Of a DNA stretch of 64,000 nucleotides, positions 28,165 to 53,754 are shown one piece after another. Each line of letters starts with the position of its first letter. The first letter of the stretch is position 1. This DNA is from a plasmid. The translations under genes and the position numbers were made by a program. The DNA lies in sequence record NZ_CP024444.1. One strand, written 5' to 3'. The notes beneath the pieces were generated by a model that saw only the letters and a list, made by a program, of their open reading frames with translations, searched no databases and was not told the DNA's origin.

Positions 28165-29286
<1,122 letters not shown>

Positions 29287-29608: not shown

Positions 29609-29674
29609 ATATTCAACCTTCTCTCATTTAGATTTAGTCATCATACTATACTCTCTTATCGTTAAACTCATAAT

Positions 29675-29700: not shown

Positions 29701-29902
29701 GGTAAATTAAAAATAATTAATATTTTTTGAAGAAAATTATCTTTTAGTTATACTATTGCTTTGCATAATTAATTTAATATTATTAAAAATCAGTAATTTA
29801 GTAAAAAAATATTAAAAAGAAACCTTTGCACGAATAAACACACAAAAGTTCATTAAATTGGTATAATACAATAAAATCAATCACCTAGCAAAAAACACGA
29901 CT

Positions 29903-30895: not shown

Positions 30896-31337
30896 GGTTA
30901 TTGTGTCTGTTGGTTAGTAAGCTCAGCCAATAGACACAAATTTAACAACCATTTGGAGATTTTATCCATGATTTAGCCATTGTTTTGCTTATTTCATTGC
31001 CATTCTTTGTTTTTTTTCGGTTTGGTGGTATGCCTCGAGCAAAGGGGCTGTTTCGTGCAAAGGTCTCAAAAATATATTTTTTAAAAAAAAGAAAATTTAT
31101 ATTAAATATTCTTATATTAACACTTCTGTATATCAAATTATCTTTTAGCAAAAACACGCTTAAAAAATAAATAAATTAAATCAATAATTTATGTTAAAGT
31201 AAAAAAAACCTAGTAATCAAACCGATTGTTAGAAAAGAATATTTCAATTGTTTAAATTAAAATCAATTAAAATAAAACCATGATACAAATTAATCTATCG
31301 AATTTACTTAATCATTTTCTTTTTAACTAGTATGCAT

Positions 31338-32909
31338 TCAACTTGAATAATTCTTCATAAACAAATTAAAATCCATGACTTGCTGCTGCTCTAACACTTC
31401 TTGCTCAAGAAGAGACTTTTGTGCAACTGATTCAAAAAATTGTTTACGCTCATCCGTCAAAACCTGTTTCGAAAAGTTATTCAAATGTTGCTGGCATTGA
31501 TGTAAAGCGAAGTCATTAAAACCTATATTATGTTGAAACATATATGTTAAGACCTTAGAGGATGGCGTTAAGAATGAATTCTCAATTTTAGCCTGTTGAG
31601 CATATATAGCTTCTTTATGTTTATTAATATCATTTGCATGATCGAGTAAATTAGCTAGAGGTCTAATATTAGCCAACAACTCTTGAGCCCAATCATACAT
31701 AGCAATTGAACTATCTCCATTTTGGAGTTCTAAATTTGGCTTTCGCCCCTTTTCAGCCACAAGGTGAAAGTTATTATTCGCCTGATTAAGGCTATCTTGA
31801 CTTAATGATGGGCTTTTATATAAAGCACAAAATAATAAAAATGCATCCAAAAAGTAAGCTTGCTCTAAATCAATTCCTAACGAAGAAAAAGGATTAATGT
31901 CCAAACAACGTATCTCGACATACTGTACCCCACGTGCATTTAATGCATGAAGCACACGCTCACCAGAATATGGAACTCGTTTTGGTCTAATATTTGAATA
32001 ATATTCATTTTCTATTTGCAAAATATTAGTATTAAGTTGCACCCATTCGTTATTTTTATGGGTACCAATATTCGTATACAAGGGGTAAGGTGTTTCTAAA
32101 GCCTCTTTTATACTATGAATGTATGAATTGAGACTATCAAAACAAGGAGAGATAGTAGATTGTGCACTACTTTGATAACCAATCTTACTCATTCGAAGAC
32201 TAGTCGCATAAGGCAAGTAGTAAGTGTCATTATCAAATTTTTTAAATTGATCTAAGTTTTTTTTTAAAAAATTTGAATTAACCGCTGGGGATGCTCCGAA
32301 TAGATAAATCAATAGCCAACTATAACGGTGAAAATTTCGTATCATATCCATATAAATTGATGACCGATCTTTATTTTCGAAAGTAGTTATATTATCTAGT
32401 TGGTATAAAAGCTGAATTAATTGCTCAGGTAATGAAAAATTATAGTGAATACCTGCTATACATTGCATGGCCCTACCATATCGAAGAGCTAATCCTTTTC
32501 GATAAACGTGTTTAAACTTACCAATATTTGAATTGCCATACTCAGCTATAGGAATCCTTTCTTCTTCTGGCAAAAGAGAAGGCATTGATGAACTCCAAAG
32601 GTATTCATTATTTAGTTTTGTATAAACAAAACGATGAATATCATTAAGTTCTGCAAGGACCTCTGAAGCACTCAAACAAGGTGGCGTAACAAATTCCATT
32701 AATGATTCGGAATAGTCTGTAGTAATAAACTCATTTGTCAAAGCTGATCCTAGTGTTTTTGGATGCGGTGTAAGCACCAAATTCCCATTCTTCGTTACAC
32801 GCAAACATTCACGTTCTATCCCTCGCAAACACATAGTCAATAAAGGTAAATTTTCACCTAGAATATTTAGACGATGAGTATAGTGTTCATCAAATATTAA
32901 TTTATCCAT
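31338..32909 (-). CDS. gshA: glutamate-cysteine ligase (gamma-glutamylcysteine synthetase)
   Basis: 523 aa. N-terminal GIERECLRV signature and overall length and colinearity with enterobacterial GshA. Confidence 0.85.
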   Translation of the reverse strand: MDKLIFDEHYTHRLNILGENLPLLTMCLRGIERECLRVTKNGNLVLTPHPKTLGSALTNEFITTDYSESLMEFVTPPCLSASEVLAELNDIHRFVYTKLNNEYLWSSSMPSLLPEEERIPIAEYGNSNIGKFKHVYRKGLALRYGRAMQCIAGIHYNFSLPEQLIQLLYQLDNITTFENKDRSSIYMDMIRNFHRYSWLLIYLFGASPAVNSNFLKKNLDQFKKFDNDTYYLPYATSLRMSKIGYQSSAQSTISPCFDSLNSYIHSIKEALETPYPLYTNIGTHKNNEWVQLNTNILQIENEYYSNIRPKRVPYSGERVLHALNARGVQYVEIRCLDINPFSSLGIDLEQAYFLDAFLLFCALYKSPSLSQDSLNQANNNFHLVAEKGRKPNLELQNGDSSIAMYDWAQELLANIRPLANLLDHANDINKHKEAIYAQQAKIENSFLTPSSKVLTYMFQHNIGFNDFALHQCQQHLNNFSKQVLTDERKQFFESVAQKSLLEQEVLEQQQVMDFNLFMKNYSS

Positions 32910-32931
32910 ATATCAAACCTTACATTCAAAG

Positions 32932-33702
32932 TTAATGTGCACCATGAACTACCCTATTAATTAAAGTTACTATAAGAATTCCTATAAAAAGCCAAAGAAT
33001 TTGGATAATGGTATCTTTAGTTGTCCAACGCTGTTGTAATTGAGGAATTAGATCTGATAAAGACACATAAATAAAACTACTACTAGCCAAAATCATAAGG
33101 AAAGGTTGCCATTGCTGTAATCCGGCCAGTAGAAAATATCCACTTAATCCACCTAAAGCTGTCATTGCACCAGCCATAGTAAGCTTTAGTACAGCAGCAC
33201 TACGATGATTTTTCTGCCTAAGAACTACCAAATCACCCATATGATGAGGTACTTCATGTACAAGAACCGAAGCAGCTGCAATCAGCCCAAGATGTATGTC
33301 AACAATGAAAATTGAAGCAATCAAAATACCATCACCAAAACAATGGACTCCATCACCCAATAATAGTGACCAACCATTAGTTGTATGTGGCTCATGTGAA
33401 TGATTATGCTCATGTCCGTGATGCCACAATTCAGCTTTATTAAGTAGAAAAAAGAAAACTAAACCAATTAGAAGTGCTAAAAAAAGTTGATGTGTATCTA
33501 TATTGCTTTCAAAAGCCTCTGGTAACAAATGTGTAAAACTTGTTGCTAATAACGCACCAGCTGCTAGACCTAAAAAGCCTTGTTGTACATAACTATCTTG
33601 ATTGTTAATAGCTGCCCCAGCTCTCGTTACCAATAAGTCTGCGATCAAAACGCTACCTATTCCTACGACCAGAGTGACTAGGGTAATAATGAAAAGTGAC
33701 AT
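32932..33702 (-). CDS. ZIP-family divalent metal transporter (ZupT-like)
   Basis: Eight TM segments, a His-rich loop HHGHEHNHSHEPH, and the ZIP signature HEVPHHMGDLVVL in TM4/5. Confidence 0.75.
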   Translation of the reverse strand: MSLFIITLVTLVVGIGSVLIADLLVTRAGAAINNQDSYVQQGFLGLAAGALLATSFTHLLPEAFESNIDTHQLFLALLIGLVFFFLLNKAELWHHGHEHNHSHEPHTTNGWSLLLGDGVHCFGDGILIASIFIVDIHLGLIAAASVLVHEVPHHMGDLVVLRQKNHRSAAVLKLTMAGAMTALGGLSGYFLLAGLQQWQPFLMILASSSFIYVSLSDLIPQLQQRWTTKDTIIQILWLFIGILIVTLINRVVHGAH

Positions 33703-33812
33703 AGATTTAATACATACCTAGTAGACAATCATTTTTAACTAATCGCATATACAAGCCGAAATTCGTTCGATACAACATCAAATTTGTAGATGTTGTATTA
33801 AGCAATCTAATA

Positions 33813-33835
33813 TACTATACCCACCTATAGTATAA
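33813..33835. promoter_or_regulatory. second FrmR/RcnR-type operator (ATACTATA-CCCACC-TATAGTAT) upstream of ZIP-gshA
   Basis: Same architecture and flanks (AATACTATACC...GTATAAAAGGG) as the frmR operator. About 110 bp upstream of the ZIP start. Confidence 0.5.
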
Positions 33836-34017
33836 AAGGGATTTTATAAAAAAGTTTAAGCCACTCAACAATTAATAGGAAATTATTTTAAATTCAATTA
33901 AATAGATACAAAAATCATGACATTCTTAATCAAATCTAGTCTATTGAGAAATTTTTATTTTTTACATTATACAAAAGAGCCTAAACAAAGGCCCTTTCAT
34001 CACTATTCTCTGAGCTC

Positions 34018-34125
34018 TTAGTATGCTAATTGAATTAAGAATCTAAAAATTCCTGCAATAACCGCTAATGTAACTACACCAATTACCCAAAGTAAGATAA
34101 ACCATCCTGTCTGTGAAAGTTTCAT
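34018..34125 (-). CDS. cydX: cytochrome bd small subunit (CydX-like), 35 aa
   Basis: Unannotated ORF MKLSQTGWFILLWVIGVVTLAVIAGIFRFLIQLAY. A single TM with a W-rich N-terminus like CydX. Lies 8 nt downstream of cydB, the canonical position. Confidence 0.5.
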   Translation of the reverse strand: MKLSQTGWFILLWVIGVVTLAVIAGIFRFLIQLAY

Positions 34126-34133
34126 ACAAACTC

Positions 34134-35138
34134 CTAATGATAACCAGCATCACCAACACGAACTTTACCTTTAAAAATCCAATATGAAAAAATGGTATAA
34201 GTCAGAATAATAGGAATGAGCAACAGTGCACCAATCAAAGCAAAAAGTTGACTATTCGCTGGGGCTGCAGCCTGCCAGATCGTTACTGAAGGTGGAATAA
34301 TATAAGGCCACAAACTAATTAAAAAACCTGTATAAGCAAGGAAGACTAAGCCTAACGTATAAATAAAAGGACTAAGTTCTTTCTTTTGTTTACATGCCCG
34401 TAAAGCCATTCCCGTAAAAATAAGTACTAATACAGGAATTGGACTAAAGTACATTAACTGAGGCTGACTAAACCAGCGTTCAGCAATTTGCGGTTGTGAA
34501 AGTGGTGTATAGATAGTAACTAATCCAAAAATAATAAATACTGAAATGATCAGTTTAGGCATCATTGAAAACATTTTTTCTTGAATTTCAGCATCAGTTT
34601 TATAAATTAACCATCCACATCCTAAAGTTGCATACAGAACGACTACACCAATACCAGTAAACACAGAGAAAGGTGTCAACCAGTCCAACTGCCCACCAGC
34701 ATAAACACCATTTAAGGTTTTAATACCCTGAATATATGCACCTAGAACTACACCTTGAAGAAAACCTGCAAATACTGAACCACTAATAAAAGCTTTATCC
34801 CACAGATGCTTAGTACGGTTTGCTTTAAATCGGAATTCAAAAGCAACTCCACGAAATATTAATGCGATCACCATCAAAATAATCGGCATATAAAGTGCAG
34901 AAAGAACTGTTGAATAAACTAGCGGAAAGGCAGCAAAAAGCCCCGCCCCACCAAGCACCATCCAAGTTTCATTACCATCCCAGACCGGAGCAACGGTATT
35001 CATTAGCACATCTCGCTCATTGGAACCTTTAATGAAAGGAAATAAAATTCCGATACCTAAGTCAAACCCATCTAGAATGACATAAATCAATACACCAATT
35101 CCAATAATGACAATCCAAATAAGAGATAAATCAATCAT
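34134..35138 (-). CDS. cydB: cytochrome bd ubiquinol oxidase subunit II
   Basis: N-terminus MIDLSLIWIVIIGIGVLIYVILDGFDLGIGIL is the CydB signature. Eight TM segments. The start overlaps cydA. Confidence 0.88.
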   Translation of the reverse strand: MIDLSLIWIVIIGIGVLIYVILDGFDLGIGILFPFIKGSNERDVLMNTVAPVWDGNETWMVLGGAGLFAAFPLVYSTVLSALYMPIILMVIALIFRGVAFEFRFKANRTKHLWDKAFISGSVFAGFLQGVVLGAYIQGIKTLNGVYAGGQLDWLTPFSVFTGIGVVVLYATLGCGWLIYKTDAEIQEKMFSMMPKLIISVFIIFGLVTIYTPLSQPQIAERWFSQPQLMYFSPIPVLVLIFTGMALRACKQKKELSPFIYTLGLVFLAYTGFLISLWPYIIPPSVTIWQAAAPANSQLFALIGALLLIPIILTYTIFSYWIFKGKVRVGDAGYH

Positions 35139-35607
35139 GGCGATTCTCCCGTATTGATTCTAGTTTATCTAAGCTTCCTTCAACCGCACTCATTGGTCGC
35201 ATCGGTGTTTGACCAACATCAGCATGTTCGCCTGAATGTACACTTAAGAATTGCGGGCCTTTATGCATTAGCTTTAACATGTAATAAATGCCAATACCGA
35301 AAACTACAAAATAAACCAGAACAAAAATAATTAGAGTTATTCCAACTTGCGATGCGGATACGGGTGACAACGCATCTTTAGTACGAAGTACATTGTAAAC
35401 AACCCAAGGTTGACGACCGACCTCTGTTGTAAACCAACCAGCTAGAAGAGCGATAAAACCTGACGGACCCATATATAATGCAAAACGTTGAAACCATTTA
35501 CTTTCATATAAACGGTCAGAACGACGCAGCCATAAGCCTAAGACGGCTAATAGCAGCATTAACATTCCCATACCAACCATGACACGGAAACTCCAAAAGA
35601 TGATCAA
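35131..35607 (-). pseudogene. cydA: cydA, C-terminal fragment only (truncated by IS3-family insertion)
   Basis: The 158 aa fragment matches the last TM helices of CydA (GRQPWVVYNVLRT). The open frame runs up to the IS3 terminal repeat at 35626, and no N-terminal part of about 350 aa is found elsewhere. Confidence 0.8.
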
Positions 35608-35720
35608 AGAATTCGGCCGATCTTCTGAACCGTCCTAGTTTTATCAGAGACAGGTTTACTTGAGTCAGGCAGCATAGCCTGACGGAATTAATGAACAATA
35701 GTACATATTTTCTGCATCTA

Positions 35721-36716
35721 CTACGAGCATAGCTCTCCGTCTTGCACTCGGGCGAAGCAGTGCTTCGCTAATCCTCGTTCAGGCGATACATATCCATTGG
35801 TAGAATGCAATCGTTCATAGTTGTACCAGTGTACCCAATCAAGGGTTGCTAGCGCAACATCATTTACGCCATCCCATTCCTGTTTCAAATAATCAATCAC
35901 CTCCGCTTTATATAGCCCATTCACGCTTTCAGCTAGGGCATTATCTGAGCGAGGAAATAGCGAAGCACTGCTTCGCCCGGGTGCAAGACGTAGGGCTATG
36001 CCCGAAGTGGAGTCACCAGTTGTACCAACCGATGCAGCAAGCCCCGATTGTTTAAGCCGTTCACCGTACTTAATCGATAGATACTGACTACCTTTATCAG
36101 AATGATGAATTACCCCGCTTGGTCTACCTCTAGCGTCTAAGGCTTGATTTAGGGCATCTAAGACCAGCTGAGTGTCCATATGATTCGATACTTTCCAACC
36201 CACAATAACTCGCTTAAATACGTCAATCACAAAGGCAGTATAGACCCAACCTGATTTAGTTTTAATGTAGGTAAAATCAGCGACCTGAGGAGCACTGCTC
36301 CGCAAGAGTCTTTTCTTGTTTGGGGCATCGGCAGTAAAGTTGCGTTTAACAAGGTCATTCGGCTTGTCTTGGTCGTCTCTCTGCTTCGTGGTGATTTTGC
36401 CTTTGCCTCGCCATACGCCTTGTATGCCAAGCTGTTTCATTAAGCGTTCAACGGTGCAACGAGCAAGCTTTGGCAAACCCTCTTGTTTGAGCTTGTGCCA
36501 AACTTTACGAATGCCATAGCGACAGCCACTGGCTTGCCAAATCTGTTTGATTTGTGCCATGAGGTGTTTGTCGCTTTGTTTGCGTCGACTTTGCTTTTCT
36601 GGGTTGTCTTGTTCATCTTTGATGCGATAGTAGGTGGATGGGGCAATTGGCAGGATTTTGCAAATCGGCTCGACCCCATATTTTTCTTTTTCATCATCAA
36701 TGAATTTGACCATCAC
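35721..36716 (-). CDS. IS3-family transposase OrfB (integrase core), carrying an atypical internal insert
   Basis: DDE region HSDKGSQYLS...DNALAESVNG. About 20 extra aa (SGIALRLAPGRSSASLFPR) sit where the family has GNCYDN. This coincides with a 33 bp inverted repeat at 35739-35771 and 35958-35990. Confidence 0.75.
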   Translation of the reverse strand: MMVKFIDDEKEKYGVEPICKILPIAPSTYYRIKDEQDNPEKQSRRKQSDKHLMAQIKQIWQASGCRYGIRKVWHKLKQEGLPKLARCTVERLMKQLGIQGVWRGKGKITTKQRDDQDKPNDLVKRNFTADAPNKKRLLRSSAPQVADFTYIKTKSGWVYTAFVIDVFKRVIVGWKVSNHMDTQLVLDALNQALDARGRPSGVIHHSDKGSQYLSIKYGERLKQSGLAASVGTTGDSTSGIALRLAPGRSSASLFPRSDNALAESVNGLYKAEVIDYLKQEWDGVNDVALATLDWVHWYNYERLHSTNGYVSPERGLAKHCFARVQDGELCS

Positions 36717-37030
36717 TTGGGTTTGCGGTCGAGCTCCGCCTGGGCTTCAATACCGGCTGCCTTGCGAATGATTTCGTTCGCTTGTTTGAGTTCTCTGATT
36801 TCTCGCTCAAGCTCAGCGATACGAGCCGCTTGGCTTTCAGTGCTTATAGTCACAGGATTTTGCTTAGCTAGGTGCTTTTGATGCCATGAGCGTAGGGTTT
36901 CAGGGGTACACCCGAATTTGGGGGCGATGGCTTGGATGGCCGCCCACAGTGAGGGATAATCTTTTTGTGATTCAATCAGTAATTCGACGGCTCTACTCTT
37001 AACTTCTGTTGGGTATTGTTTGCTTTTCAT
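36713..37030 (-). CDS. IS3-family transposase OrfA (HTH)
   Basis: 105 aa. HTH followed by a leucine-zipper-like ELEREIRELKQANEI segment. Confidence 0.8.
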   Translation of the reverse strand: MKSKQYPTEVKSRAVELLIESQKDYPSLWAAIQAIAPKFGCTPETLRSWHQKHLAKQNPVTISTESQAARIAELEREIRELKQANEIIRKAAGIEAQAELDRKPK

Positions 37031-37437
37031 AAGGGTATTGTCTCAGAGTTTTAGGTCTCCGACAATCCCGGGACGGTTCACTTTTGGTCGTCAAGTTTTA
37101 AAAGACTTAGTTTGTAAAAGCTCATTATTAGGAGATTTAGCTCTAAAGAAGAAAGTACATGAACACTTATTTAAGTTTTTAGAAAATACTATTAATTCTC
37201 TTTATAATCCAGATGCATATAAAGATAGTAGAATCGATATGGTATTTAAGGAAAAAGGCTTTACAATACGTAACAATATTTTAAGTTCAGATGTAAGACA
37301 AGATTTTAATAAAAAAAATTTTTCTGACCCAATTCACAAAATTTTTAAAGATATTGGAATTTTTTAAAGTTATAGATGCAACTCTAACCTTATAACTTTA
37401 ATTGTATAAGGTTAGTAGATAGCGCATTATATATTTA

Positions 37438-38421
37438 ACCCCACTCTCAACACTTTTAGAGGGGGTTGAAACAAAAAAGGCATGAACTTAAACTTTAATC
37501 AATGACCAAAAAGATTAGAGGATAAGCCATGCCCATTGATGAATTTATCATTAAAATCTATCTAATGGTAGATGACTACTACAAAAAGATTGTAACAAAC
37601 CGGCTAAGACAAGGCGGATATGCACCAAAGCTAACCGACAGTGAAATTATCACCATGGAGATAGTGGGTGAGTTTTTACAGATGGACACCGATTCACAAA
37701 TCCATCAGTATTTTAAACAGCATTGGCAAACATGGTTTCCACAAATAGGCTCATATCCCAACTTTGCCAAGCAGTGCGTCAATTTGTTACAGGTAAAAAC
37801 TTTGATACAACAGCATATCGTTAAACAGCATGGGCAAGACAACATTCATTTTATTGATGGCTTTCCCATTCCGGTGTGTCAATATGCCAGAGCCTATCGG
37901 CATAAAACCTTCGAATATGAAGGTAGCTATAGTTACTGTGCCTCAAAGCAACAAAAATATTTTGGCTTTGAAGGACATTTACTCATTAATCTATCGGGCA
38001 TGATAACCAATTTTACCTTTGCCTCTGCTAAGATAGATGAAAGGCTTGTTGCACCTGATATGCTTGATAATATCAAAGGCTTGTTAGGTGCAGATATGGG
38101 CTATATTAGCCCTGATTTATCTGAGTATTGCTTTAAGCGATGTGTTGATTTGCAAACACCGCTTAGAAAAAATATGCCCGATAAACGACCAATCAGTGTA
38201 CTTAATCGTCTTAAAAATTCTCGTCGCAATATTGAGACGGTGATTGGTCAGTTATCACAGCGGTTTAATATGCAAAAGGTGAGAGCGAGAGATTTATGGC
38301 ATTTATCCCACAGATTTATGCGTAAAATCTTGGCTCATAACGTTTGCTTTGTGATCAATAAACAGTTAGGTAATCCCCCACTTCAGTTTGAGTTGCTTAT
38401 TTCAAGTTGAGAGTGGGGTAT
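37438..38421 (+). mobile_element. IS982-family insertion sequence, copy 2 (same orientation as copy 1, about 96% identical)
   Basis: Same terminal repeats CCCCACTCTCAAC ... GTTGAGAGTGGGGT. The transposase differs from copy 1 at about 10 aa. Confidence 0.8.
37529..38410 (+). CDS. IS982-family transposase
   Basis: 293 aa, a paralog of the 20297-21178 protein. Confidence 0.85.
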   Translation: MPIDEFIIKIYLMVDDYYKKIVTNRLRQGGYAPKLTDSEIITMEIVGEFLQMDTDSQIHQYFKQHWQTWFPQIGSYPNFAKQCVNLLQVKTLIQQHIVKQHGQDNIHFIDGFPIPVCQYARAYRHKTFEYEGSYSYCASKQQKYFGFEGHLLINLSGMITNFTFASAKIDERLVAPDMLDNIKGLLGADMGYISPDLSEYCFKRCVDLQTPLRKNMPDKRPISVLNRLKNSRRNIETVIGQLSQRFNMQKVRARDLWHLSHRFMRKILAHNVCFVINKQLGNPPLQFELLISS

Positions 38422-38615
38422 TAAATAGAAAAAATAAAGAAACTCTAAAATATTGGTAAAATTAAAAACCTAAACCTAGTCTTTCATCTTTATTACCAAA
38501 ACAACCCACATCTAATTATTATCCAAACCCCATATATCACGTCATGCAATCGCTAAAATTTGGTTTGGTCTAATGGCTAATGTGATTAATTTATAGAGGC
38601 TTTTTTAAATTTATT

Positions 38616-39255
38616 TACGCTCAAATCGGTTTTTATACGTTATTTGCCATTTTCTTACGCTCAAATCGGTTTTTATACGTTATTTGCCATTTTCTTACGC
38701 TCAAATCGGTTTTTATACGTTATTTGCCATTTTCTTACGCTCAAACCCATTTTTATACGTTATTTGCCGTTTTCTTACGCTCAAACCCATTTTTATACGT
38801 TATTTGCCGTTTTCTTACGCTCAAACCCATTTTTATACGTTATTTACCATTTTCTTACGCTCAAACCCATTTTTATACGTTATTTACCATTTTCTTACGC
38901 TCAAACCCATTTTTATACGTTATTTGCCATTTTCTTACGCTCAAACCCATTTTTATACGTTATTTACCATTTTCTTACGCTCAAACCCATTTTTATACGT
39001 TATTTGCCATTTTCTTACGCTCAAACCCATTTTTATACGTTATTTACCATTTTCTTACGCTCAAACCCATTTTTATACGTTATTTGCCATTTTCTTACGC
39101 TCAAACCCATTTTTATACGTTATTTGCCGTTTTCTTACGCTCAAACCCATTTTTATACGTTATTTGCCATTTTCTTACGCTCAAATCGGTTTTTATACGT
39201 TATTTACCGTTTTCTTACGCTCAAACCCATTTTTATACGTTATTTGCCGTTTTCT
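38616..39255. repeat. 16 x 40 bp perfect-period tandem direct repeat array (iteron- or centromere-like)
   Basis: Unit TACGCTCAAACCCATTTTTATACGTTATTTGCCATTTTCT. The variants are CAAATCGGT / CAAACCCAT and GCCAT / ACCAT / GCCGT / ACCGT. There are no unique spacers. Confidence 0.95.
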
Positions 39256-39730
39256 TACGTTCTTGAAGGACTTAATCATATCTCTATATTTTCATCCAAG
39301 TTTTCATGTATCTTGGCGTTGAATTCGCTTAAAGGAAGTTTTCTGTTTCTAGCTTATGAAGTTCTCGCCTTTCTTACCAAAACATACTGAATTTTTTTAT
39401 TAATAGCTAATGTCAGATGCGCTCTAAGCTCGATGGTTGGGCAATCTTCACTTGAAATGTCATTAATGCTTTTTAAAATTTCAGTTTTTTAAAAATAGGT
39501 TCTGACAATAACTGCTTCATCCCAAAAATTTAATAAGAATTTCTTGAGTAACGGGAGATAGACAATTTTTTATCACGGTTTGCGCCGCTTCTGCCCTATA
39601 TGTAATGCCCTATATTTAACTTTTGAAATAGCGATAGCTTGATTTAGGTTTTGTCCAGCCAAAAACCGCAGGACTTTTATTCTGTCGCCTTATGGCGACA
39701 ACGATTCGGGTTTTTGGGCTGTTGGGCTAA

Positions 39731-40042: not shown

Positions 40043-40440
40043 AATGTTTTACCTTTTTGGAAGTAGAAATGTGATTGAGCCTATCTCGAAATCACCTGCT
40101 TATAATAACGGTTTTAGCGTGTATTGTCAAGCGGTTTAACCGTTTTTTTCATGTAAAGAAAAGTAACCAAACATAGGCTGTGCCTAGCTTTTAGCCTATT
40201 TTGACTACCAAAAAATGCGTTACAATTTTCCCCATATTTAAGGTTTTTCTAAACCCATTTCACCCTGTATGTAATGGCTTTTCAAACCACTGTTCACCCT
40301 ATAATTAAAGGCTTTTCTTGAATTAGCGATAGCTTGATTTAGATTTATCCGCACCCAAAAAAATGCCCAAGCAATCGCAAGGGCAAAGTTGACATTCGGG
40401 GAATGGGTAGGCAATCACGCCTACCGTTTTCATTTGGGGG

Positions 40441-40905: not shown

Positions 40906-40931
40906 GACATTTATCCCTCTATTTAAAAAAC

Positions 40932-41212
40932 CATGACCACGGCTTTTGGTGGTAATGGTTGCAATCTTTTCAGGCAATCATTCCCACGGCTTTTGGTGGG
41001 TATGAGGCCCTCTTGTCTTAGCTCGGATAGTCAAGGCTGGCAAGTATGAAATGCAGGCAATCGCCTACGGATCATGCGGCTTGATGACTTATCGCGTTAG
41101 CAGGAAGTCAGTAAGACCATGAAGCCGTCAGCGAGTGACAAGAGTAATACTGCCAAGACTGACGTTGCTGGCGTCTTTTTGCCAGCAATCCGCCAAAGTC
41201 TTTATCAGTTAA
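40932..41212. repeat. 281 bp non-coding repeat, copy A (second copy at 43687-43967, about 98% identical)
   Basis: Both copies read directly. It contains an internal direct repeat CCACGGCTTTTGGTGG x2 and a terminator-like GCTGGCGTCTTTTTGCCAGC. Confidence 0.8.
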
Positions 41213-41233
41213 AAAACTAACCTTTGCGCAAAT

Positions 41234-41710
41234 TTATGAATTATCTAAAGTAGCTTTATTGGCTAATAACCGAATTAAATCTTTTAACTCATAATCTTTG
41301 TGAGCAATAGCACCAACCTTAATTAACCCATTCTCAATATGGTATAAATCATAAACAATAGCGTCTGATACCAAAACGGGTTGTTCATCAGGTACATTAA
41401 TATCAATTAATCGGATAACAGGTTCGCTATCATCATCCACGCCAGCCGAACCAAAACGTTCTGCACTCACAATAAAAGAAACATCGAAACCATCTAGCCA
41501 AAGTTCAAATAAAAGACTTGCCGGGATATCACGACTACCTTTTTCATAATTGGCATACGTGGATTGGGCAATCGCTAATCGCTCATAAACAGATTTAGCC
41601 GTATAACCTAACCTTAACCGTTCTTGCTTTAATCGCTCACCGATAAACTTGAACGGATATTTTTTAAATTCAGCATCAATCTTTGCCATAAGTTGTTCTT
41701 GGGGGTTCAT
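41234..41710 (-). CDS. XRE-family HTH transcriptional regulator with C-terminal domain
   Basis: N-terminal HTH (LKQERLRLGYTAKSVYERLAIAQSTYANYEKGSRDIP). 158 aa. Its own promoter is distinct from the conserved module. Confidence 0.7.
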   Translation of the reverse strand: MNPQEQLMAKIDAEFKKYPFKFIGERLKQERLRLGYTAKSVYERLAIAQSTYANYEKGSRDIPASLLFELWLDGFDVSFIVSAERFGSAGVDDDSEPVIRLIDINVPDEQPVLVSDAIVYDLYHIENGLIKVGAIAHKDYELKDLIRLLANKATLDNS

Positions 41711-41955
41711 GAGTAAATCCTATGTACCAGTATAAGTATAGTCATATAAAATGCATTAAATATAGCCATTTGACCACATGTTGTCTATCACAACGATAGC
41801 ATCCATAAGTAACATTTGTATTAGCGATAGCTTGATATAGTCCATCACGCCAAATTTTTGGAAAAAAACCCAACCAATTTTTTGGCTGGGCGTTGGGTTT
41901 GACTGGGTGACTGGACGACCAACCTTACCGCATTGGGTAAGGTGGTTTTGCGTGA

Positions 41956-42318: not shown

Positions 42319-42611
42319 AATCTCGTTCCTTTTGGTTGGGTGATGGTAGCGAGCCTATCTCGTTTCCATGTGCTTATAATAACGCTTTAACCGTGTATAA
42401 TCAAGCGGTTTTAGCGTTTATTTAAGGGTTTTCCGACGAACGGTAAAACCGTTTATTTCGCAGTTTGCCGGGCGAACACCCCTATAATTGATGGCTTTTC
42501 ATCTTTGTATTAGCGATAACTTGATATAGTGCATCACGCCCACCCAACCGATGGCGATGCATGGACGAAAAAACCTAGTCACTTCTGACTAGGCTTTATG
42601 CATCCGGCTTG

Positions 42612-43508
42612 TTAAGCGGCTATGGGTTGTTTCTTCTGCGACCAATTTTCTAAGATGTAATTAACTGCTTTTTGGGCGTCCGCTGAAGCTTTGAAGATGG
42701 CGCGTTTGTCAGCTTTTAGCACTTGTAACCATGATTTTAAATAGCTTGCATGGTTGGTTAGTGTGGTTTCTAAGCATCCCATTTCAGCGCATAAAAAGCT
42801 TGCGCCTAGTTCTGCTACAAGTTCCTCCCGAGCGTATGCGGTATCACCGAATTTTTTACCGTATTGGCGGTTTAATCGTTTTTCTGCACCCGTGCTGTGG
42901 ACTAGCTCATGTCCAAGCGTCGCAAACTGTTCATCTAGGTTTACAAAGTCGCTTGCATTCGGCATGCATATCGTATCGATGTAGGGTTTATAACAAGCTG
43001 AATTGTAACCGTATTCAATTTTTACGTCGGTATTTGCAAAGATGGTTTTTGCGGTTTCATTCTCTGCAATGGGTGTTAACGTTTCGTCTTCATCAGGGGT
43101 GATTGCGCTAATATCGCCATCCATTTGGCTAATGTTAAACACACAAAAACTATTTAAAAATGGGATGGTTTCGATGTCACCCTCTTTGTTTTCTTTCTCA
43201 ATGACATTGTAATATGCTAGGCGTACCGATTTTGCACCTTTTTTAACCTGTAAGTTTTTGGCTTGGGCTTGCTTGTAGGTCATCCATACATTGTATTTAT
43301 AATCGCTGTTAATCATGGCTTTGGCTAAGATTAGACGATTAACGCCTTTGTAGAGTTCACCTGTTGAGCCATTGACGCCACCGAAAATGTTGGTAACCGG
43401 ACGGGTTTTCCAGCCTTTTTTCCATTGTGGTAAATCAGTTTCAAGAAGTTCAATCATTGCATTGGTTACTTCTTGGTACATATCGATTTTAGTAGCTGAT
43501 TTTGTCAT
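42612..43508 (-). CDS. ardC: ArdC-like antirestriction protein (N-terminal ssDNA-binding domain + zincin metalloprotease HExxH)
   Basis: N-terminus TKIDMYQEVTNAMIELLE and the HELVHSTG motif. Start moved to the MTKSATK Met at 43508, just after the conserved RBS. The ORF track began 29 codons upstream, inside the module. Confidence 0.8.
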   Translation of the reverse strand: MTKSATKIDMYQEVTNAMIELLETDLPQWKKGWKTRPVTNIFGGVNGSTGELYKGVNRLILAKAMINSDYKYNVWMTYKQAQAKNLQVKKGAKSVRLAYYNVIEKENKEGDIETIPFLNSFCVFNISQMDGDISAITPDEDETLTPIAENETAKTIFANTDVKIEYGYNSACYKPYIDTICMPNASDFVNLDEQFATLGHELVHSTGAEKRLNRQYGKKFGDTAYAREELVAELGASFLCAEMGCLETTLTNHASYLKSWLQVLKADKRAIFKASADAQKAVNYILENWSQKKQPIAA

Positions 43509-43665
43509 GATGTCGTTTCCTTTTGGTTGGGTGTTGGAATTGAGCCTATCTCGTTTCCATGTGTTTATAATAACGGTTTTAGCGTGTATAGTCAAGCGGT
43601 TTAACCGTGTATTTTATGCATTTTCCGACGAACGGTAAAACCGTGTATCTTCAGATGCCGGACAC
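43509..43665 (-). promoter_or_regulatory. conserved promoter/5'UTR/RBS module (ardC copy)
   Basis: TTGACT-N17-TATTATAAAC promoter, CATGGAAACGAGATAGGCTC UTR box and CCAACCAAAAGGAAACG RBS region. Confidence 0.7.
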
Positions 43666-43686
43666 ACAACCCAATAATTAACAACC

Positions 43687-43967
43687 ATGACCACGGCTTT
43701 TGGTGGTGATGGTTGCAAGCTTTTCAGGCAATCATTCCCACGGCTTTTGGTGGGTATGAGGCCCTCTTGTCTTAGCTCGGATAGTCAAGGCTGGCAAGTA
43801 TGAAACGCAGGCAATCGCCTACGGATCATGCGGCTTGATGACTTATCGCGTTAGCAGGAAGTCAGCAAGACCATGAAGCCGTCAGCGAGTGACAAGAGTA
43901 ATACTGCCAAGACTGACGTTGCTGGCGTCTTTTTGCCAGCAATCCGCCAAAGTCTTTATCAGTTTAA
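43687..43967. repeat. 281 bp non-coding repeat, copy B
   Basis: Near-identical to 40932-41212. In both copies it sits immediately distal to a conserved promoter module. Confidence 0.8.
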
Positions 43968-44656
43968 TCACCACGGCTTACCAACTAACCAATAACACCA
44001 ACTAACCTAACATCTTGCCCATCCATAAAATCCACATCAGCCTAAAACACCACAATAGACACCACCATGGCAAAACCTTATGCTAGAACCATAATAGCCT
44101 CTACTGCATTAAGTATATATGCACTAACAAAGGTGACTTACCGGGTAACCACTTATGGCTAGTACATCACGCCAATATCAACCTATCATCGATACCAAAC
44201 TCACCAAGCTTGGGCTAAAAAGTCAGGTAAACCAGTTCATTAAACTAACTGCCATAATCATGGTAATGCCAACAGTGATAGCAAATTATCTCGTCACACT
44301 GCTAACTATTCATAAAAAAGCGAATCGATTAAGACTGCAGGCGCAATTGCCGATACCGACGTTAAAGCAGGCTTATCTTCTGCTTATCAAAGCAAACGAC
44401 GTGTAAACCTGACAAGGTCTTAACCGTACTATAAAAGCACCTAAATAGCCTACCTGACTAAAGCCGTTGTATGGGGGTATCTATAAGTAACGGCTACGAG
44501 CAATAGATTATCCAATCAATGCCTAAGCCAGTTAACTTCCACTTTGTTTTAGCGATAACTTGATGTAGGCTGCCAAACCACACGCCAGTCTTGCCATTAA
44601 CCGCTGCCCATAAAAAACCCTAGTGCGATGACTAGGGCTATTGGGTGGTAAGTGGG

Positions 44657-46266: not shown

Positions 46267-46557
46267 GATGGTTATCCTTTTGGTTGGGGTTATGGTGTCG
46301 AGCCTATCTCGTTTCCATGTACTTATAATAACGCTTTAACCGTGTATAGTCAAGCGGTTTAACCGTTTATATACAAGCTATTCGACGGATGGCTGGCGCA
46401 GGCGCGATGTGTGTTAACCCACACTCCCCCATACATAAGCTCTTATAGCACTAGCTATCGCTTGAATTAGATCAGCTCGCCTGTCCAATACCCACCGATG
46501 CGATGGGCATAAAAAAACTTGCTAGGGTTAACTAGCAAGTCTGTTGTTTGGGTGGGC

Positions 46558-47316
46558 TTATGCTAAGGGACGTTTTTTGCTCTTGGATTTATCATTTTTA
46601 CGGCATTCATTTAATGCCACAAAACTTTTAGCAAGGGTTAGGATGCCTTCTTTATATACTTTCCAAAAATCTAAGGCATCGAATTCCATTCGGGCTATCT
46701 CGCTACTGCTAAAATTTTCCCATTCTTCGATGGTGTGGCATTTACAGCCGATACGGATTTTGTCATTCATCAAGCTGATAAACCACTGATAATCATATAA
46801 ACACAATACCGGATAAGGTAGCTTGGCGAAGGTGATATTTGCACCACGAAAAATGGCTTGTTCAATGTCGCATTGGGTGAAGTCGGTTTGTTTCAATGAT
46901 GCGTTGGTAAAGTTGGTATTAATGGTATTGGCATTGGTAAAAATTGAGCAATCAAGGTTACAGCCATCAAGATGGGTTAATTCTAGGTTGCTATCCGTAA
47001 AGTTACAATTGCTAAGGTTGGCTTGATAAAAATAAGCTTGGCGTAAATCTGCGTTGGTAAAATTTACCCGACGTCCTTTTACATTGGTCATGTTGGTTTG
47101 GCATAAGTTAGCATTTTCAAAATTGGCATTGCTGATATCGCAGTTAATAAGGCTTGCACCGAATAAATTTGCACCGCTTAGGTTTGCACCTGTTAAATCA
47201 AACCCTTTTAAGTCCATGTCTTTTAAGTCGATGTTGCGTAAGTCGGCTTTAACTAGGGTGTCTAAATCAAGTGTGATAGTCGATTTGTTGTATACATGCT
47301 TGATGGTGATAGCCAT
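46558..47316 (-). CDS. pentapeptide-repeat protein with conserved C-terminal Cys module (RIGCKCHTIEEWENF)
   Basis: Tandem A(N/D)LxG pentapeptides throughout. The C-terminal module is shared with three paralogs. Confidence 0.85.
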   Translation of the reverse strand: MAITIKHVYNKSTITLDLDTLVKADLRNIDLKDMDLKGFDLTGANLSGANLFGASLINCDISNANFENANLCQTNMTNVKGRRVNFTNADLRQAYFYQANLSNCNFTDSNLELTHLDGCNLDCSIFTNANTINTNFTNASLKQTDFTQCDIEQAIFRGANITFAKLPYPVLCLYDYQWFISLMNDKIRIGCKCHTIEEWENFSSSEIARMEFDALDFWKVYKEGILTLAKSFVALNECRKNDKSKSKKRPLA

Positions 47317-47476: not shown

Positions 47477-47604
47477 TCCAGGTAAGAATGTTTTTTTGAT
47501 ATAGCGATCGTTTGATATAGGCCATCACGCACGCCCAAACAGCGAGCCAAAAAAAACGCCTTACTATCAAGTAAAGCGTTGGGTGGGTGGGTCAAGGCTT
47601 ATCG

Positions 47605-48759: not shown

Positions 48760-49746
48760 TTAAGCCACTGCCGGATGATGGTTTGGGTGGGTACCATAAA
48801 CATCAAGCACATTTAAGGCGTGTCTTGTCCCTGCCAGTCCATTAAATATCACCACACCATCCGCGCCTGTGTACAAGCAGATATCAAGGGGTGCGCCAAT
48901 ATACTTACCGCGAATAGGTTGGAACTTTTTATCAAACATAATCGCTTGCATCTTGCCTGTCTGCATCTGCCCACTATTTGGCGTATCAAGGTGGGTGACT
49001 TCATAAAAATGGGTATGAGAGCATTCGTCCATGGCATTGGCTAAAATCGTACCTATCTCAATTGGCTTGCTGTCATTGGCGTGGCTTAATGCCTTTTGGG
49101 TATCGACGTGGTCTTCAATCGCATCATATAGGTGCGCCATGACCAATAGAATACTATTCCACCCGTGATAAAAATAGGTGGCATGGGGCAAGCACAAGGC
49201 ATAGCCTTTTTTGTGTTCTTCGGTGGTGGCAAACAATAAAATATCATCATCAAGCCAACTGCCAATTAACTCAACATAGCGAGCATTAAAATAGCTTTTT
49301 ACGCCCTCTAAGCGATTGCTATACAATGGGTGCAAGTGGCTGTGGATGTGGTAGCCTTGCTTTTGGACAATGGCTTTGGTCTGTTCGCTTGCATCCTTGA
49401 GCCTTTCTTCAAAGTCAGTGATTTGCTGACGGTCACGCTCAAGCACGAATTGACGAGCCGACCACAACTCCCCAAAAAAGTAACTAGGCGTGGTGTATTC
49501 AGCATCAAGTAACGGGCAATCATTGCGTGACGTGAGCACATAACGCCCATTGTTATTGACCGATAGCAAACAAGGCGGCTGAAATAGCGTACCATCACAA
49601 AAATAGACGCCATCTTGAACGTGGCTTTTTTTGGTGACCCGTTGAAAAGGTTGTGAGCAAGTTTTGCTTAGTCCGCGCATTTCTTCGCATAGGGCTAGAT
49701 GGTCGGTGCTGTGTACGATACTTTTCATCAAAACATATAAATTCAT
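48760..49746 (-). CDS. unknown-function protein, paralog family member 3
   Basis: 328 aa. Blocks DGTLFQPP, DDILLFATTEEHKKGYALCL and RGKYIGAPLDICLY. Co-transcribed with the small ORF at 49823-49939. Confidence 0.65.
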   Translation of the reverse strand: MNLYVLMKSIVHSTDHLALCEEMRGLSKTCSQPFQRVTKKSHVQDGVYFCDGTLFQPPCLLSVNNNGRYVLTSRNDCPLLDAEYTTPSYFFGELWSARQFVLERDRQQITDFEERLKDASEQTKAIVQKQGYHIHSHLHPLYSNRLEGVKSYFNARYVELIGSWLDDDILLFATTEEHKKGYALCLPHATYFYHGWNSILLVMAHLYDAIEDHVDTQKALSHANDSKPIEIGTILANAMDECSHTHFYEVTHLDTPNSGQMQTGKMQAIMFDKKFQPIRGKYIGAPLDICLYTGADGVVIFNGLAGTRHALNVLDVYGTHPNHHPAVA

Positions 49747-49822
49747 GGCAATTATCCTATTGGTTTTAAGTGGTGGGTGGGCGGTAAGTGAGCCTTTCTC
49801 AACTAACCGTTAATCAGCATTA

Positions 49823-49939
49823 TTATTTTTTAAGCACGCGTTTAACACTGGGGGCGACTTTGCGTTGAGCCGTTCCCAAATAGCGATACATCATTAAAGA
49901 CAATGGGTAAATAAAAGCACTGATTTGTAAAAAATTCAT
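49823..49939 (-). CDS. small hydrophobic peptide (38 aa) MNFLQISAFIYPLSLMMYRYLGTAQRKVAPSVKRVLKK
   Basis: Unannotated ORF directly after a conserved RBS. One TM with a basic tail. Confidence 0.35.
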   Translation of the reverse strand: MNFLQISAFIYPLSLMMYRYLGTAQRKVAPSVKRVLKK

Positions 49940-49942
49940 GGC

Positions 49943-50095
49943 CGTTCCTTTTGGTTGGGTGATGGTAGCAAGCCTATCTCGCTGTCCATGTAGTTATAAT
50001 AACGCTTTAACCGTGTATAATCAAGCGGTTTAACCGTGTTTTTACCCATTTTCCGATAAACGGTAAAAGCGTTTTTCGGGTCGGCTGACACGTTT
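49943..50095 (-). promoter_or_regulatory. conserved promoter/5'UTR/RBS module
   Basis: Same module, driving the small ORF and the 48760 gene. Confidence 0.65.
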
Positions 50096-50228
50096 CCCTA
50101 CAATTTACTATCCTTGTACTAGCTATGGCTTGATGTAGATCAGCTCGCCTGCCTAACGCCTGCCAAAATCGGTACAAAAAAAGCCACAATACGATGATTG
50201 TAGCTTTGGGTGGGTGGGCGTGATGCGA

Positions 50229-50975
50229 CTAGGCGACTTGCTTTTTAGATGGCGTGATTTTTTTAAGCTGTTGCTCACTAAACGCGGTAGCGATGGCTAA
50301 AATTTCCTCTTTGAATTCTTCCCAAAACTCAATGGCGTAGTCATCCATATCAATGATTTCGTTACCATCAAAATTACGCCATTCTTCAATGCTATAACAT
50401 TTACAGCCAATGCGTAGCATATCGTCACATACGCTGATAAACCACTCATAGTTATACAGGCAAAGCAATTTTTTGGGTAATACGGTGCAATCTAACACGG
50501 TATAGTCAAAAACCGTTCGACGAATATCCGACTTCATCAAATTAGCTTCAGTTAAATTGGCACAGGTAAATTGCGTGGTGTCCAAATTGGTGTTGTTAAA
50601 GACCACCCATTGAAAATTTGAACGGTATAAATTGGATTTGCTTAAATTCACATTGTCAAAAATTGCATGTTTAAAGTCGGCATTGGAAGCCACCACCATT
50701 GCCATATTCGCATTACTAAAGTCGGCATTGCCTGCCCTTGAGCCATTTAAATTGGCGTGAGTCATGTTGGCATGACTAAAATTAGCTTCAAACAGTTCGC
50801 AGTCGGTCATAATAGCCCGTGATAAATTGGCACCGCTAAAATTTGCCTTGGATAAATCAACACTGGTAAAAATAGCACCAGCTAAGTTTTGACCGCTAAA
50901 GTCATAGCCTTGCAGGGTATCAGCATCGATAACTAGGTCGTCTTTCTTGCCAAAAAATTTAATGGTAATACTCAT
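50229..50975 (-). CDS. pentapeptide-repeat protein with C-terminal Cys module (RIGCKCYSIEEWRNF)
   Basis: 248 aa, paralog of 46558. Confidence 0.85.
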   Translation of the reverse strand: MSITIKFFGKKDDLVIDADTLQGYDFSGQNLAGAIFTSVDLSKANFSGANLSRAIMTDCELFEANFSHANMTHANLNGSRAGNADFSNANMAMVVASNADFKHAIFDNVNLSKSNLYRSNFQWVVFNNTNLDTTQFTCANLTEANLMKSDIRRTVFDYTVLDCTVLPKKLLCLYNYEWFISVCDDMLRIGCKCYSIEEWRNFDGNEIIDMDDYAIEFWEEFKEEILAIATAFSEQQLKKITPSKKQVA

Positions 50976-51313
50976 GGGTGTGTCCTTTTGGTTGGGGGTC
51001 GGAATTGAGCCTATCTCGTTTCCATGATGCTATTATAACGGTTTTAGCGTGTTTAATATAACGGTTTTAGCGTTTATTTATCGATTTTCCGATAAACGGT
51101 TTTAACGTTCACCACGCCCACCACCCACCTACCCCGACCCTTAGTCATGCTTGCCTTAGAGTTCGCTTGCGCTAGGTGCATCCTTGCTACCGGATAAAAC
51201 CATCGCCAAAAAAAATGCTATACAGGTGTATAGCATTGACTGGTGTGACTAAGCTTCATTAGACTAGACGGCATCAGGCATGTCATGACTGCCGTATGGG
51301 TTGGCATAGTCAG

Positions 51314-52141
51314 TTAGCTGACTTGTTTTTGTCCCTGAAAGATGCTCACGCCCATACCGACATCGTCATGTTTTTGTTGATATAAGCCGTCTTTAAATTG
51401 GTAGTCTTTTTCATACGAATGGTAGAAAGCACAGGCGATTTCGAGTATTTCATATTTATGCCAACGCCAAAACGATAAGGCTTCATCGCCCATATTCTCA
51501 ATTTGCTCTGCGTTAAAGTCTTTCCATTGTTTGATGGTATGACACTGGCATCCAATACGGATGGTATCGGCACAAATAAAAATTGGCCAGTTGTAATGAT
51601 ACAAAAACATCACCTTAAAAGGAAATAAGGCGGTCATGATGTTTGTTCCCCAAAAAATAGCGTAGCGGATGTCTGCTTGCTGAAAGTCGGCACAGCTAAT
51701 AGTGGCGTTAAAAAAATTGGTTGCTAGTAAATCTGCCTTATCAAAACTTGCTTGCACAAGACTTGCGCCCGTGAATTGGGCATACTGACAGTTGGCATCA
51801 TGAAAATTACTAAAATTAAAATTGGCATGACTGGCATGAATGCTTTTGAGATTGGCGTGTTTAAAGCGTCCCTTCAGTAGCGTTGCGCTAGTAAAATTAG
51901 CCCCTTGTAAATCAGCGTTTTCAAAATTGACATGATTTAACGTCGCCTTATCAAAACGCGCATACTGTAAATTGCATCCGCTAAAATTGGCATTGGTTAA
52001 GTCCATGCCGATAAAGTCAGCACCTTGTAAATTGGCACCGCTAAAATCATGCCCCACAAGACTGTCGCCCTCGATGGTTGCAAGGATGGCTTTTGATTTG
52101 AAGGAATTATGCGTAAGGTAGCTTTGAATTTCGATGGTCAT
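51314..52141 (-). CDS. pentapeptide-repeat protein with C-terminal Cys module (RIGCQCHTIKQWKDF)
   Basis: 275 aa paralog. Confidence 0.85.
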   Translation of the reverse strand: MTIEIQSYLTHNSFKSKAILATIEGDSLVGHDFSGANLQGADFIGMDLTNANFSGCNLQYARFDKATLNHVNFENADLQGANFTSATLLKGRFKHANLKSIHASHANFNFSNFHDANCQYAQFTGASLVQASFDKADLLATNFFNATISCADFQQADIRYAIFWGTNIMTALFPFKVMFLYHYNWPIFICADTIRIGCQCHTIKQWKDFNAEQIENMGDEALSFWRWHKYEILEIACAFYHSYEKDYQFKDGLYQQKHDDVGMGVSIFQGQKQVS

Positions 52142-52446
52142 ACTTTTATCCTTTTGGTTGGGTGTTGGAATTGAGCCTTTCTCGTTTCCATGATGCTATT
52201 ATAACGGTTTTAGCGTGTTTAATATAGCTGTTTAACCGTGTTTTTACTCATTTTCCGACGAACGGTAAAACCGTTTTTAGGTTGGCTGGCACGTTTCCCC
52301 GTACTTAATGACCCTTGTACTAGCCATATCTTGAGATATGTACTAGCCATATCTTGAGATAGCCGATCGGCACCGACTGCCGTTTGTTAGCCATCAGCCA
52401 CAAAAAAGCATGGTGTGGTTACCATGCTTGGGCATATCAAGTCATC

Positions 52447-53445: not shown

Positions 53446-53754
53446 AATCTTTTTCCTTTTGGTTGGGGTCGGATGTGAGCCTATCTCACAATCCATGTGC
53501 TTATAATAACGCTTTAACCGTGTATAATAAAGCGGTATTAGCGTTTTTCTACCCATTTTCCGATGAACGGTAAAAGCGTTTTTAAAGTCGGCTGGCACGT
53601 TTCCCTGTACTTTAGGGGGTTTACCTGATTTAGTGATAGCTTGGGCTAATACTGGGTTAGTAGGCTTGGTCGCAGCGGTATGCCAATCGGCATTAAAAGC
53701 TTGGGCAACAAAAAACCCATGCACTGGCACGGGTTTGTTTGGGTGGGCGTGGGG

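Follow-up and report, generated by a model that had tools for sequence, protein, structure and literature searches.

Leading-region genes decide whether a conjugative plasmid survives on entering a new host. To our knowledge, the timing of leading-gene expression is understood in only a few enterobacterial plasmids, through the Frpo elements of F and IncI plasmids, the ArdK/CUP regulon of IncN and KorA/KorB of IncP. The CUP/ArdK regulon of the IncN plasmids pKM101 and R46 (Delver and Belogurov, 1997; described in PMC6289460 and PMC5371602) is built from CUP copies that each contain a promoter and a repressor-binding site, with the gene for the regulator carrying a variant of the element. The Frpo/ssi single-stranded promoters of the F plasmid (Masai and Arai, 1997; surveyed in PMC11541004) are long imperfect hairpins that hold the −35 and −10 in duplex with complementary segments. 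In the IncP-1 plasmid RK2, KorB bound at O_B is combined with promoter-proximal KorA (PMC11790492).

The window analysed here is a stretch of 64,000 nucleotides of a plasmid (sequence record NZ_CP024444.1), and from 39.6 to 64 kb it consists of an array of about 24 short transcription units, on the minus strand throughout, in each of which a strongly conserved upstream module is followed by a single gene and an intrinsic terminator. The closest public relative, and the sole close one, is the 248-kb megaplasmid pMOXF1 of Moraxella osloensis (CP040258.1); its array is collinear with that of the window over about 43 kb and contains about 35 cassettes, as against about 20 single-gene units in the window. 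A search of PLSDB for relatives returned pMOXF1 only, and scans of phage, viral, GTDB-genome and metagenome collections gave chance matches and one related contig of 1.3 kb. Products of the array include SSB (ssb, 59423–59980), ArdC (42612–43595; a full-length product, ArdcN plus metallopeptidase), an XRE-type HTH protein and a DpnD/PcfM-like protein, together with numerous proteins that belong to no family. Four pentapeptide-repeat proteins, so annotated in pMOXF1, are also encoded there (46558–47316, 50229–50975, 51314–52141 and 57719–58477) and are possibly DNA mimics or anti-restriction factors. The region 12383–19993 carries Dot/Icm-type (type IVB, IncI-like) conjugation genes, and the products encoded between 12 and 20 kb comprise DotM_C, a DotB-like ATPase, an IncI TraI/DotC lipoprotein and DotD, as well as a topoisomerase and a ParM-like protein. 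From its gene content and the adjoining transfer genes, we infer that the array is a conjugative leading/establishment region. Of the large unannotated ORFs checked (window 1078–7619), none could be recognised as encoding a relaxase, nor was a primase recognised, and PLSDB/MOB-suite typing classes pMOXF1 as non-mobilizable despite the Dot/Icm-type genes.

The segment at about 20200–38400 is missing from pMOXF1 at the corresponding position and looks like a recent insertion between dotD and a set of 40-bp repeats; its 21.2–25 kb portion, which carries genes for a UvrA-like protein and an oxidoreductase, is 98–99% identical to plasmids of Acinetobacter baumannii and A. pittii. The repeats themselves (16 tandem copies of the 40-bp unit TTACGCTCAAACCCATTTTTATACGTTATTTGCCATTTTC at 38615–39259, 96% matches) separate the type IVB transfer genes from the array and lie immediately downstream of an AT-rich stretch and a solo copy of the distal box described below; they could represent iterons, a centromere or an element close to oriT. 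Within the array, a 288-nt element occurs twice with 98% identity (40926–41213 and 43680–43967), where it takes the place of the distal half in the cassettes of ardC and a 105-aa gene; both copies include CGTCAGCGAGTGACA, which differs at a single position from the motif CGWCA-N5-TGWCG of the WYL activator DdaA of Moraxellaceae (PMC12392091). The sole plus-strand ORF of the array (44155–44406, 83 aa) faces another solo box in the 44507–44568 region, from which a weak promoter-like site on the minus strand would direct antisense transcription into the ORF, an arrangement reminiscent of a toxin/antisense pair.

All 24 cassettes of the window are on the minus strand, are about 250 bp in length and contain the promoter TTGATT-17-TATTAT with a conserved leader; where present, the distal box forms their upstream end. 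In gene orientation the order is terminator, a G-rich spacer of 21–70 nt that ends in GGCGWG, box, A-tract, a TTAAnnTAnGGG(G) island, GAAACGTGCCAGCCGAC, operator O3 (ACGSTTTTACCGT with TCGTCGGAAAA), operator O2, the −35 hexamer TTGATT, operator O1 within the 17-bp spacer, the −10 hexamer TATTAT, leader and ATG, and in nearly all units the box lies 21–70 nt downstream of an intrinsic terminator. Three copies of the 13-bp palindrome ACGGTTWAACCGT or its variant ACGGTTTTAGCGT are found in every cassette, one in the promoter spacer, one abutting the −35 and one about 25 bp further upstream (42382–42394, 42406–42418 and 42440–42452 in the cassette described here), and the pMOXF1 array has about 85 copies of the ACGGTTWAACCGT-type palindrome. 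The features of the cassette downstream of the ArdC gene are as follows.

42570–42597, minus strand: intrinsic terminator of the upstream ArdC gene (42612–43595); a T-run follows on the minus strand
42535–42540, minus strand: semi-conserved flank GGCGTG, 5–6 nt upstream of the box (most copies read GGCGWG)
42505–42529, minus strand: focal distal box, refined motif CTATATCAAGTTATCGCTAATACAA, which includes the 20-mer at 42510–42529
42479–42491, minus strand: second conserved island TCAATTATAGGGG (general form TTAAnnTAnGGG(G)), 15–34 nt after the box
42429–42452, minus strand: operator O3, palindrome ACGGTTTTACCGT with flank TCGTCGGAAAA
42406–42418, minus strand: operator O2 (ACGCTAAAACCGC), directly upstream of the −35
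42399–42404, minus strand: −35 hexamer TTGATT of the cassette promoter, by promoter match
42382–42394, minus strand: operator O1 (ACGGTTAAAGCGT) in the 17-bp spacer
42376–42381, minus strand: −10 hexamer TATTAT, by promoter match
42319–42362, minus strand: conserved 5′ leader, with hairpin CGAGATAGGCTCG (42350–42362) and then CCCAACCAAAAGGA; Shine–Dalgarno at 42327–42333, ATG at 42318

The leader (hairpin GAGCCTWTCTC, C-rich CCCACC or CCCAACC, AAGGA) doubles as an intercistronic element at 49742–49800, after a 51-aa ORF (49936–50091) and ahead of the gene at 48760–49746. Motifs of the CCCACCCA type follow many of the stop codons.

As a whole, the arrangement has its nearest known analogue in the CUP/ArdK regulon, since in both a conserved non-coding element of several hundred bp is repeated upstream of co-oriented establishment or anti-restriction genes by the transfer region, the copies include a promoter together with a site for a repressor, and the gene of the regulator has a variant of the element; the leading genes of R46 were confirmed to be separated by repeats of 240–650 bp with 86–98% identity (CUP). 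The differences are considerable. There are about 35 cassettes here, approximately one per gene and closed by terminators, compared with four to six in IncN; each has three palindromic operators and a non-palindromic distal box; and the transfer system is type IVB whereas that of IncN is VirB-like. Comparison of the array with the R46 leading region and CUP by blastn gave no match, the XRE protein aligned with ArdK only at E = 0.48 and with ArdR not at all; lacking DNA or regulator homology with CUP/ArdK, the array is therefore CUP-like in its working but not a member of that family.

The distal box was originally described in the initial annotation as a 20-mer, TTAGCGATAACTTGATATAG, at 42510–42529. 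This was verified as described, and the 14 sites that had been listed for it all exist, none more than about 16 nt from the coordinates given. A degenerate version of the 20-mer has 16 matches in the window with up to three mismatches, every one on the plus strand, where 0.06 would be expected from shuffled sequences, and further copies beyond those listed were found at 50119, 51156, 52320/52343, 55410, 61389 and 62403. Alignment of 34 distinct copies refined the motif to 25 nt, in gene orientation CTA-N3-CAAG-N2-AT-N2-CTA-N3-CAA, which matches the window 21 times with up to two mismatches, on a single strand (0.22 expected). With a position matrix, 21 box copies were detected in the window and at least 33 in pMOXF1, on one strand and in the array only; the other 200 kb of pMOXF1 contained no convincing copy by the same matrix. 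In addition to the focal box, the copies in the window are located as follows.

39623–39647, minus strand: solo distal box at the array's left end, followed by two copies of TATAGGGC, an AT-rich stretch and the 40-bp tandem repeats
40318–40342, minus strand: distal box about 200 bp upstream of the module at 40079, with three TTAAnTAnGGG-type repeats between
41816–41840, minus strand: distal box ahead of the XRE gene's own promoter, at a distance of 33 nt, by motif match
44544–44568, minus strand: solo distal box about 10 nt upstream of the weak promoter-like site at 44535–44507, by motif match
46446–46470, minus strand: distal box, by motif match
47496–47520, minus strand: distal box, by motif match
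50114–50138, minus strand: distal box, by motif match
51151–51175, minus strand: distal box, degenerate, by motif match
52315–52362, minus strand: two tandem distal boxes in one module, a perfect 23-bp unit repeated twice (52316–52361)
53625–53649, minus strand: distal box, by motif match
54056–54080, minus strand: distal box, by motif match
55405–55429, minus strand: distal box, by motif match
56932–56956, minus strand: distal box, by motif match
57611–57635, minus strand: distal box, by motif match
58606–58630, minus strand: distal box, by motif match
60119–60143, minus strand: distal box upstream of ssb (59423–59980), by motif match
61384–61408, minus strand: distal box, by motif match
62398–62422, minus strand: distal box, by motif match
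63763–63787, minus strand: distal box, by motif match

The box is under position-specific purifying selection. Over the 34 distinct copies, identity is 96% at the 15 specified positions and 57% at the 10 positions interleaved with them, a heterogeneity that is highly significant (χ2 = 230, p = 1.6e-35), and between orthologous boxes of the window and pMOXF1 substitutions occur mainly at the variable positions; the comparison is one of paralogous copies within a single plasmid lineage, and no independent lineage carrying the box was found in the PLSDB, phage, viral, genome and metagenome collections. The flanks are much less conserved than the box, although the element can be extended in gene orientation to GGCGWG-N5-6-CTA-N3-CAAG-N2-AT-N2-CTA-N3-CAA followed by an A-tract. 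The motif is non-palindromic and all 34 copies are on the same strand. Its conserved triplets recur at intervals of 5–6 bp, and CTAnnnCAA is present twice as a direct repeat, 16 bp apart. Such conservation could in principle be a by-product of cassette duplication or gene conversion, with the box a functionless relic; it is indeed part of a duplicated module, and every copy comes from one plasmid lineage. However, invariant and free positions alternate nucleotide by nucleotide in these 34 diverged copies, which points to selection on a recognition sequence rather than to recent duplication or gene conversion, and the box has been retained where the rest of the module is missing while its flanks are much less conserved. 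We therefore consider a relic very unlikely.

The box had been placed 95–110 bp from the −35, and this agrees roughly with the median gap of about 99 bp between the box and the −35 hexamer; measured from start to start the distance is 107–143 bp (median 119), with one case at 212. Distances are continuous over 113–126 bp and show no 10.5-bp phasing (Rayleigh R = 0.22, p approximately 0.22). Of the 24 modules in the window, 18 have a box, two of these being degenerate, and six have none. Conversely, three boxes (39628, 41821 and 44549) are not associated with a standard module. One of these belongs to the XRE gene (41234–41710), which, as had been noted, has the box but not the standard module; it has instead a sigma-70-type promoter of its own (TAGACA-17-TATATT, 41787–41759), whose −35 is abutted by a unique palindrome, CTATCGTTGTGATAG at 41785–41799, that differs from the box. 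The operator–promoter core is likewise found without a box, in the six window modules and at three sites elsewhere on pMOXF1. The box is thus separable from the promoter core, and neither its distance from the promoter nor its helical phase is constrained. The three pMOXF1 sites (4831–4876, 33694–33743 and 41254–41330 of record L012) are in varied surroundings: one core lies ahead of a gene for a HEAT-repeat protein beside parAB/rep, another precedes a large DNA methyltransferase operon, with a 135-aa gene followed by a 2.8-kb methyltransferase gene, and the remaining one is in a second, small ssb/pentapeptide cluster.

In the initial annotation the box was interpreted as an inverted copy of the −35 region, with which it would pair on the transferred strand so that a long hairpin rebuilds a duplex promoter in the manner of Frpo/ssi. 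The setting favours such an idea, in that a co-oriented array with ssb and ardC stands beside type IVB transfer genes and, as with Frpo, non-coding elements are repeated upstream of ssb-type leading genes on one coding strand. The complementarity, however, is limited to CTTGAT in the box and ATCAAG at the −35, a mere 6 nt (7 in some copies). In an alignment of 20 modules the 10 proposed pairs were formed in 65.5% of cells, compared with 65.4% after column shuffling, and columns 38–40 failed in 13–20 of the 20 modules. No proposed pair was changed on both sides; five modules whose −35 lacks the C had no compensation in the box, and modules with TTGACT, TTTATT or ATATTA as −35 retained an ordinary box. 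Eighteen modules were folded as single-stranded DNA, on both strands, with the Mathews-2004 DNA parameters, the model applied to Frpo candidates (PMC11541004). Box and −35 region were expected to share close to zero base pairs, 2.3 at most, so that the check by which the hairpin proposal was to stand or fall gave no box/−35 pairing above background. The box and the −35 are not connected by any inverted repeat of at least 8 nt; every inverted repeat present can be traced to pairing among the three operator palindromes. In the only local hairpin, O1 is paired with O2 and the −35 falls in a loop of 12 nt, and the consensus fold comprises nine operator-derived pairs (−3.2 kcal/mol) with the box unpaired.

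The F intergenic region upstream of ssb, which served as a positive control, folded under the same scheme into one imperfect hairpin spanning 316 nt, with 84–87 long-range pairs and −0.24 kcal/nt. For the full intergenic regions of the array the corresponding values were a median of 14 long-range pairs, which varied among modules, and −0.14 kcal/nt. The F leading region and the array shared just a 33-nt match inside the ssb coding sequence (blastn, word size 7, E ≤ 1). These folding predictions give no pairing of the box with the −35 region in single-stranded DNA; array modules lack the hairpin of about 200–330 nt typical of Frpo, and their −35 is not in a duplex stem. The box is not an Frpo/ssi element, and we give a promoter rebuilt by box/−35 pairing almost no chance of being correct.

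A number of other candidates for the box were tried and rejected. One was a local hairpin in which the GGCGTGATG flank would pair with the ATCAC/ATCGC half of the box; it was discounted as, with DNA and RNA parameters and on both strands, the box's own pairs were no stabler than cross-paired ones. A leader peptide starting at the ATG in GTGATGGAC is interrupted by TAG stops in class-2 variants, and the ATG is missing in most copies; with TAG in the only ATG-initiated frame of class 2 and conservation that has no codon periodicity, the box is not coding. If the box and the TAnnnT/GGG island are taken as a second sigma-70 promoter, there is no consensus match and the spacing varies by 19 nt (35–54 nt from box start to GGG), and given this variable spacing box and island are not one rigid −35/−10 pair. 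Plus-strand, sigma-54 (TGGCACG), ECF-type and T7-like promoters were excluded by eye, as the required positions are not conserved, and no known RNA family was detected in 38–64 kb. For DdaA there are four one-mismatch matches in the window compared with 3.2 expected, none in or near a box; the UmuDAb box (TTGA-N4-GTnAC-N4-TCAA; PMC11332147) differs in having a GTnAC core and a second arm, both absent here. A site for the plasmid ParB was also rejected, as parS is likely to be a different palindrome (TTGCGTTAACGCAA) upstream of parA in pMOXF1, and no box was found near parAB of that plasmid. Five copies of the palindrome AAACTTGCGTTAACGCAAACTT are present upstream of parA (L011 16822–17050; pMOXF1 at about 247.8–248.05 kb), and fourteen iteron-like repeats (GAAAGGTGTACAAATATTT) precede the rep gene (L012 5778–6830). 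A faint integrase-SAM match in a 388-aa protein raised the question of an integron-like recombination site, which had no PDB or NCBIfam support; the arrays of the window and pMOXF1, being collinear, provide no cassette breakpoints.

The alternative already offered in the initial annotation was a second cis-acting protein site that loops DNA with the proximal boxes. The position-specific conservation fits a protein site; the looping part of the proposal fares less well. If the box were a distal operator of the ACGGTTWAACCGT-binding repressor, acting through a DNA loop of about 100 bp, its position about 100 bp upstream would be typical of an auxiliary operator, and about half of the boxes do begin with TTAGCG, a half-site variant of the proximal operators (ACGGTTTTAGCGT). 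The other half begin with TTAGTG, which is never seen in the operators, and a second half-site is absent. A rigid, short repression loop would be expected to keep phase, whereas the distances here are continuous; the box is otherwise unrelated in sequence to ACGGTTWAACCGT, and it is also found before other promoters and where the proximal operators are absent. Looping is accordingly not favoured and we regard it as improbable. An IHF-type architectural site, bending the DNA upstream of each promoter, appears slightly less probable still. The consensus for Escherichia coli IHF is WATCAANNNNTTR, and the box consensus TATCAAGCTATCG fits eight of its nine specified positions, with A-tracts following at intervals of about 21–23 bp. 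The TTR element is, however, all but lacking: CAA and the first T of the TTR are conserved but the second T is present in about one of the 34 copies. The WAT positions, too, are poorly conserved, and an IHF site includes neither the invariant CTA triplets nor the second CAA.

It is also conceivable that the box is read on the incoming single strand as a strand-specific signal that needs no hairpin, either ssi-like for a primase or a target for a single-stranded-DNA-binding establishment factor. All 34 copies of a non-palindromic motif are on one strand, they are restricted to the co-oriented putative leading array and occur there three times without a cassette promoter, ssi-like priming would recur approximately every 1 kb, and a candidate duplex-binding protein for the box was not found. 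Strict orientation within a co-oriented array is equally compatible with a single-strand signal and with a duplex site, but it is uninformative as a bias given that all the genes share one orientation. Moreover, no primase or relaxase was recognised, the nearest hairpin is the terminator at a variable 21–70 nt, and known ssi signals need secondary structure, which is absent here; we rate this possibility, like looping, as improbable. Slightly better, though still a long shot, is the wider proposition that one common factor acts on all of the approximately 35 units regardless of distance and phase, with the box as its asymmetric loading site or as a single-stranded-DNA signal. In one version the factor would be a co-repressor that spreads or slides, analogous to KorB but not of the ParB type; in the other, the box would mark the incoming single strand for priming or for single-stranded-DNA-dependent control of early genes.

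The explanation that we prefer, and to which we give somewhat better than even chances, is that the box is a distance-tolerant recognition site in duplex DNA for a putative sequence-specific protein, forming the upstream end of a CUP-like cassette. The triplets every 5–6 bp and the CTAnnnCAA repeat suggest two subunits bound head-to-tail, and the binder is probably plasmid-encoded. The XRE protein is the only recognisable transcription factor in the array, and its gene has a unique palindromic operator unlike the box; no homologues of this protein were detectable beyond its own cluster (its Logan contig being 99% identical), and a search for repressors among the array proteins and the neighbours of out-of-array cassettes recognised only XRE and one HTH_7 protein. 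The box did not match any of the regulator sites with which it was compared (DdaA, the UmuDAb box and ParB parS-like palindromes).

In a model based on this duplex recognition site, the first layer of control would be the triple ACGGTTWAACCGT operator, which brackets the −35 of the sigma-70-type promoter TTGATT-17-TATTAT. The box would contribute a second, distance-tolerant layer of common control or insulation that includes the gene for the XRE regulator; its position just downstream of each terminator would suit an insulating boundary. Establishment genes controlled in this way would likely be subject to zygotic induction, firing in the repressor-free recipient and later being shut down, a logic that resembles the ArdK/CUP regulon of IncN or KorA plus KorB of RK2. 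The resemblance to KorA/KorB lies in a proximal operator combined with a second site at a variable, phase-independent distance, a pairing that recurs at many promoters on a single plasmid. Whereas O_B is palindromic and is bound by a CTPase of the ParB family, the box is non-palindromic and strictly oriented; this comparison is an analogy of logic only.

The Moraxella array represents an unusually large and regular version of a leading region, with about 35 insulated single-gene units that each combine a triple-operator promoter with an extra box. Excluding a single-stranded promoter arm removes an attractive but wrong analogy and leaves a well-defined element of 25–37 bp, and finding its binder would reveal a second regulator that acts globally on the establishment genes. 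In its uncharacterised products the array also offers a wealth of candidates for anti-defence proteins, and if a common factor does act on all of its units, this would be a new way for a type IVB megaplasmid to time the expression of its anti-defence genes.
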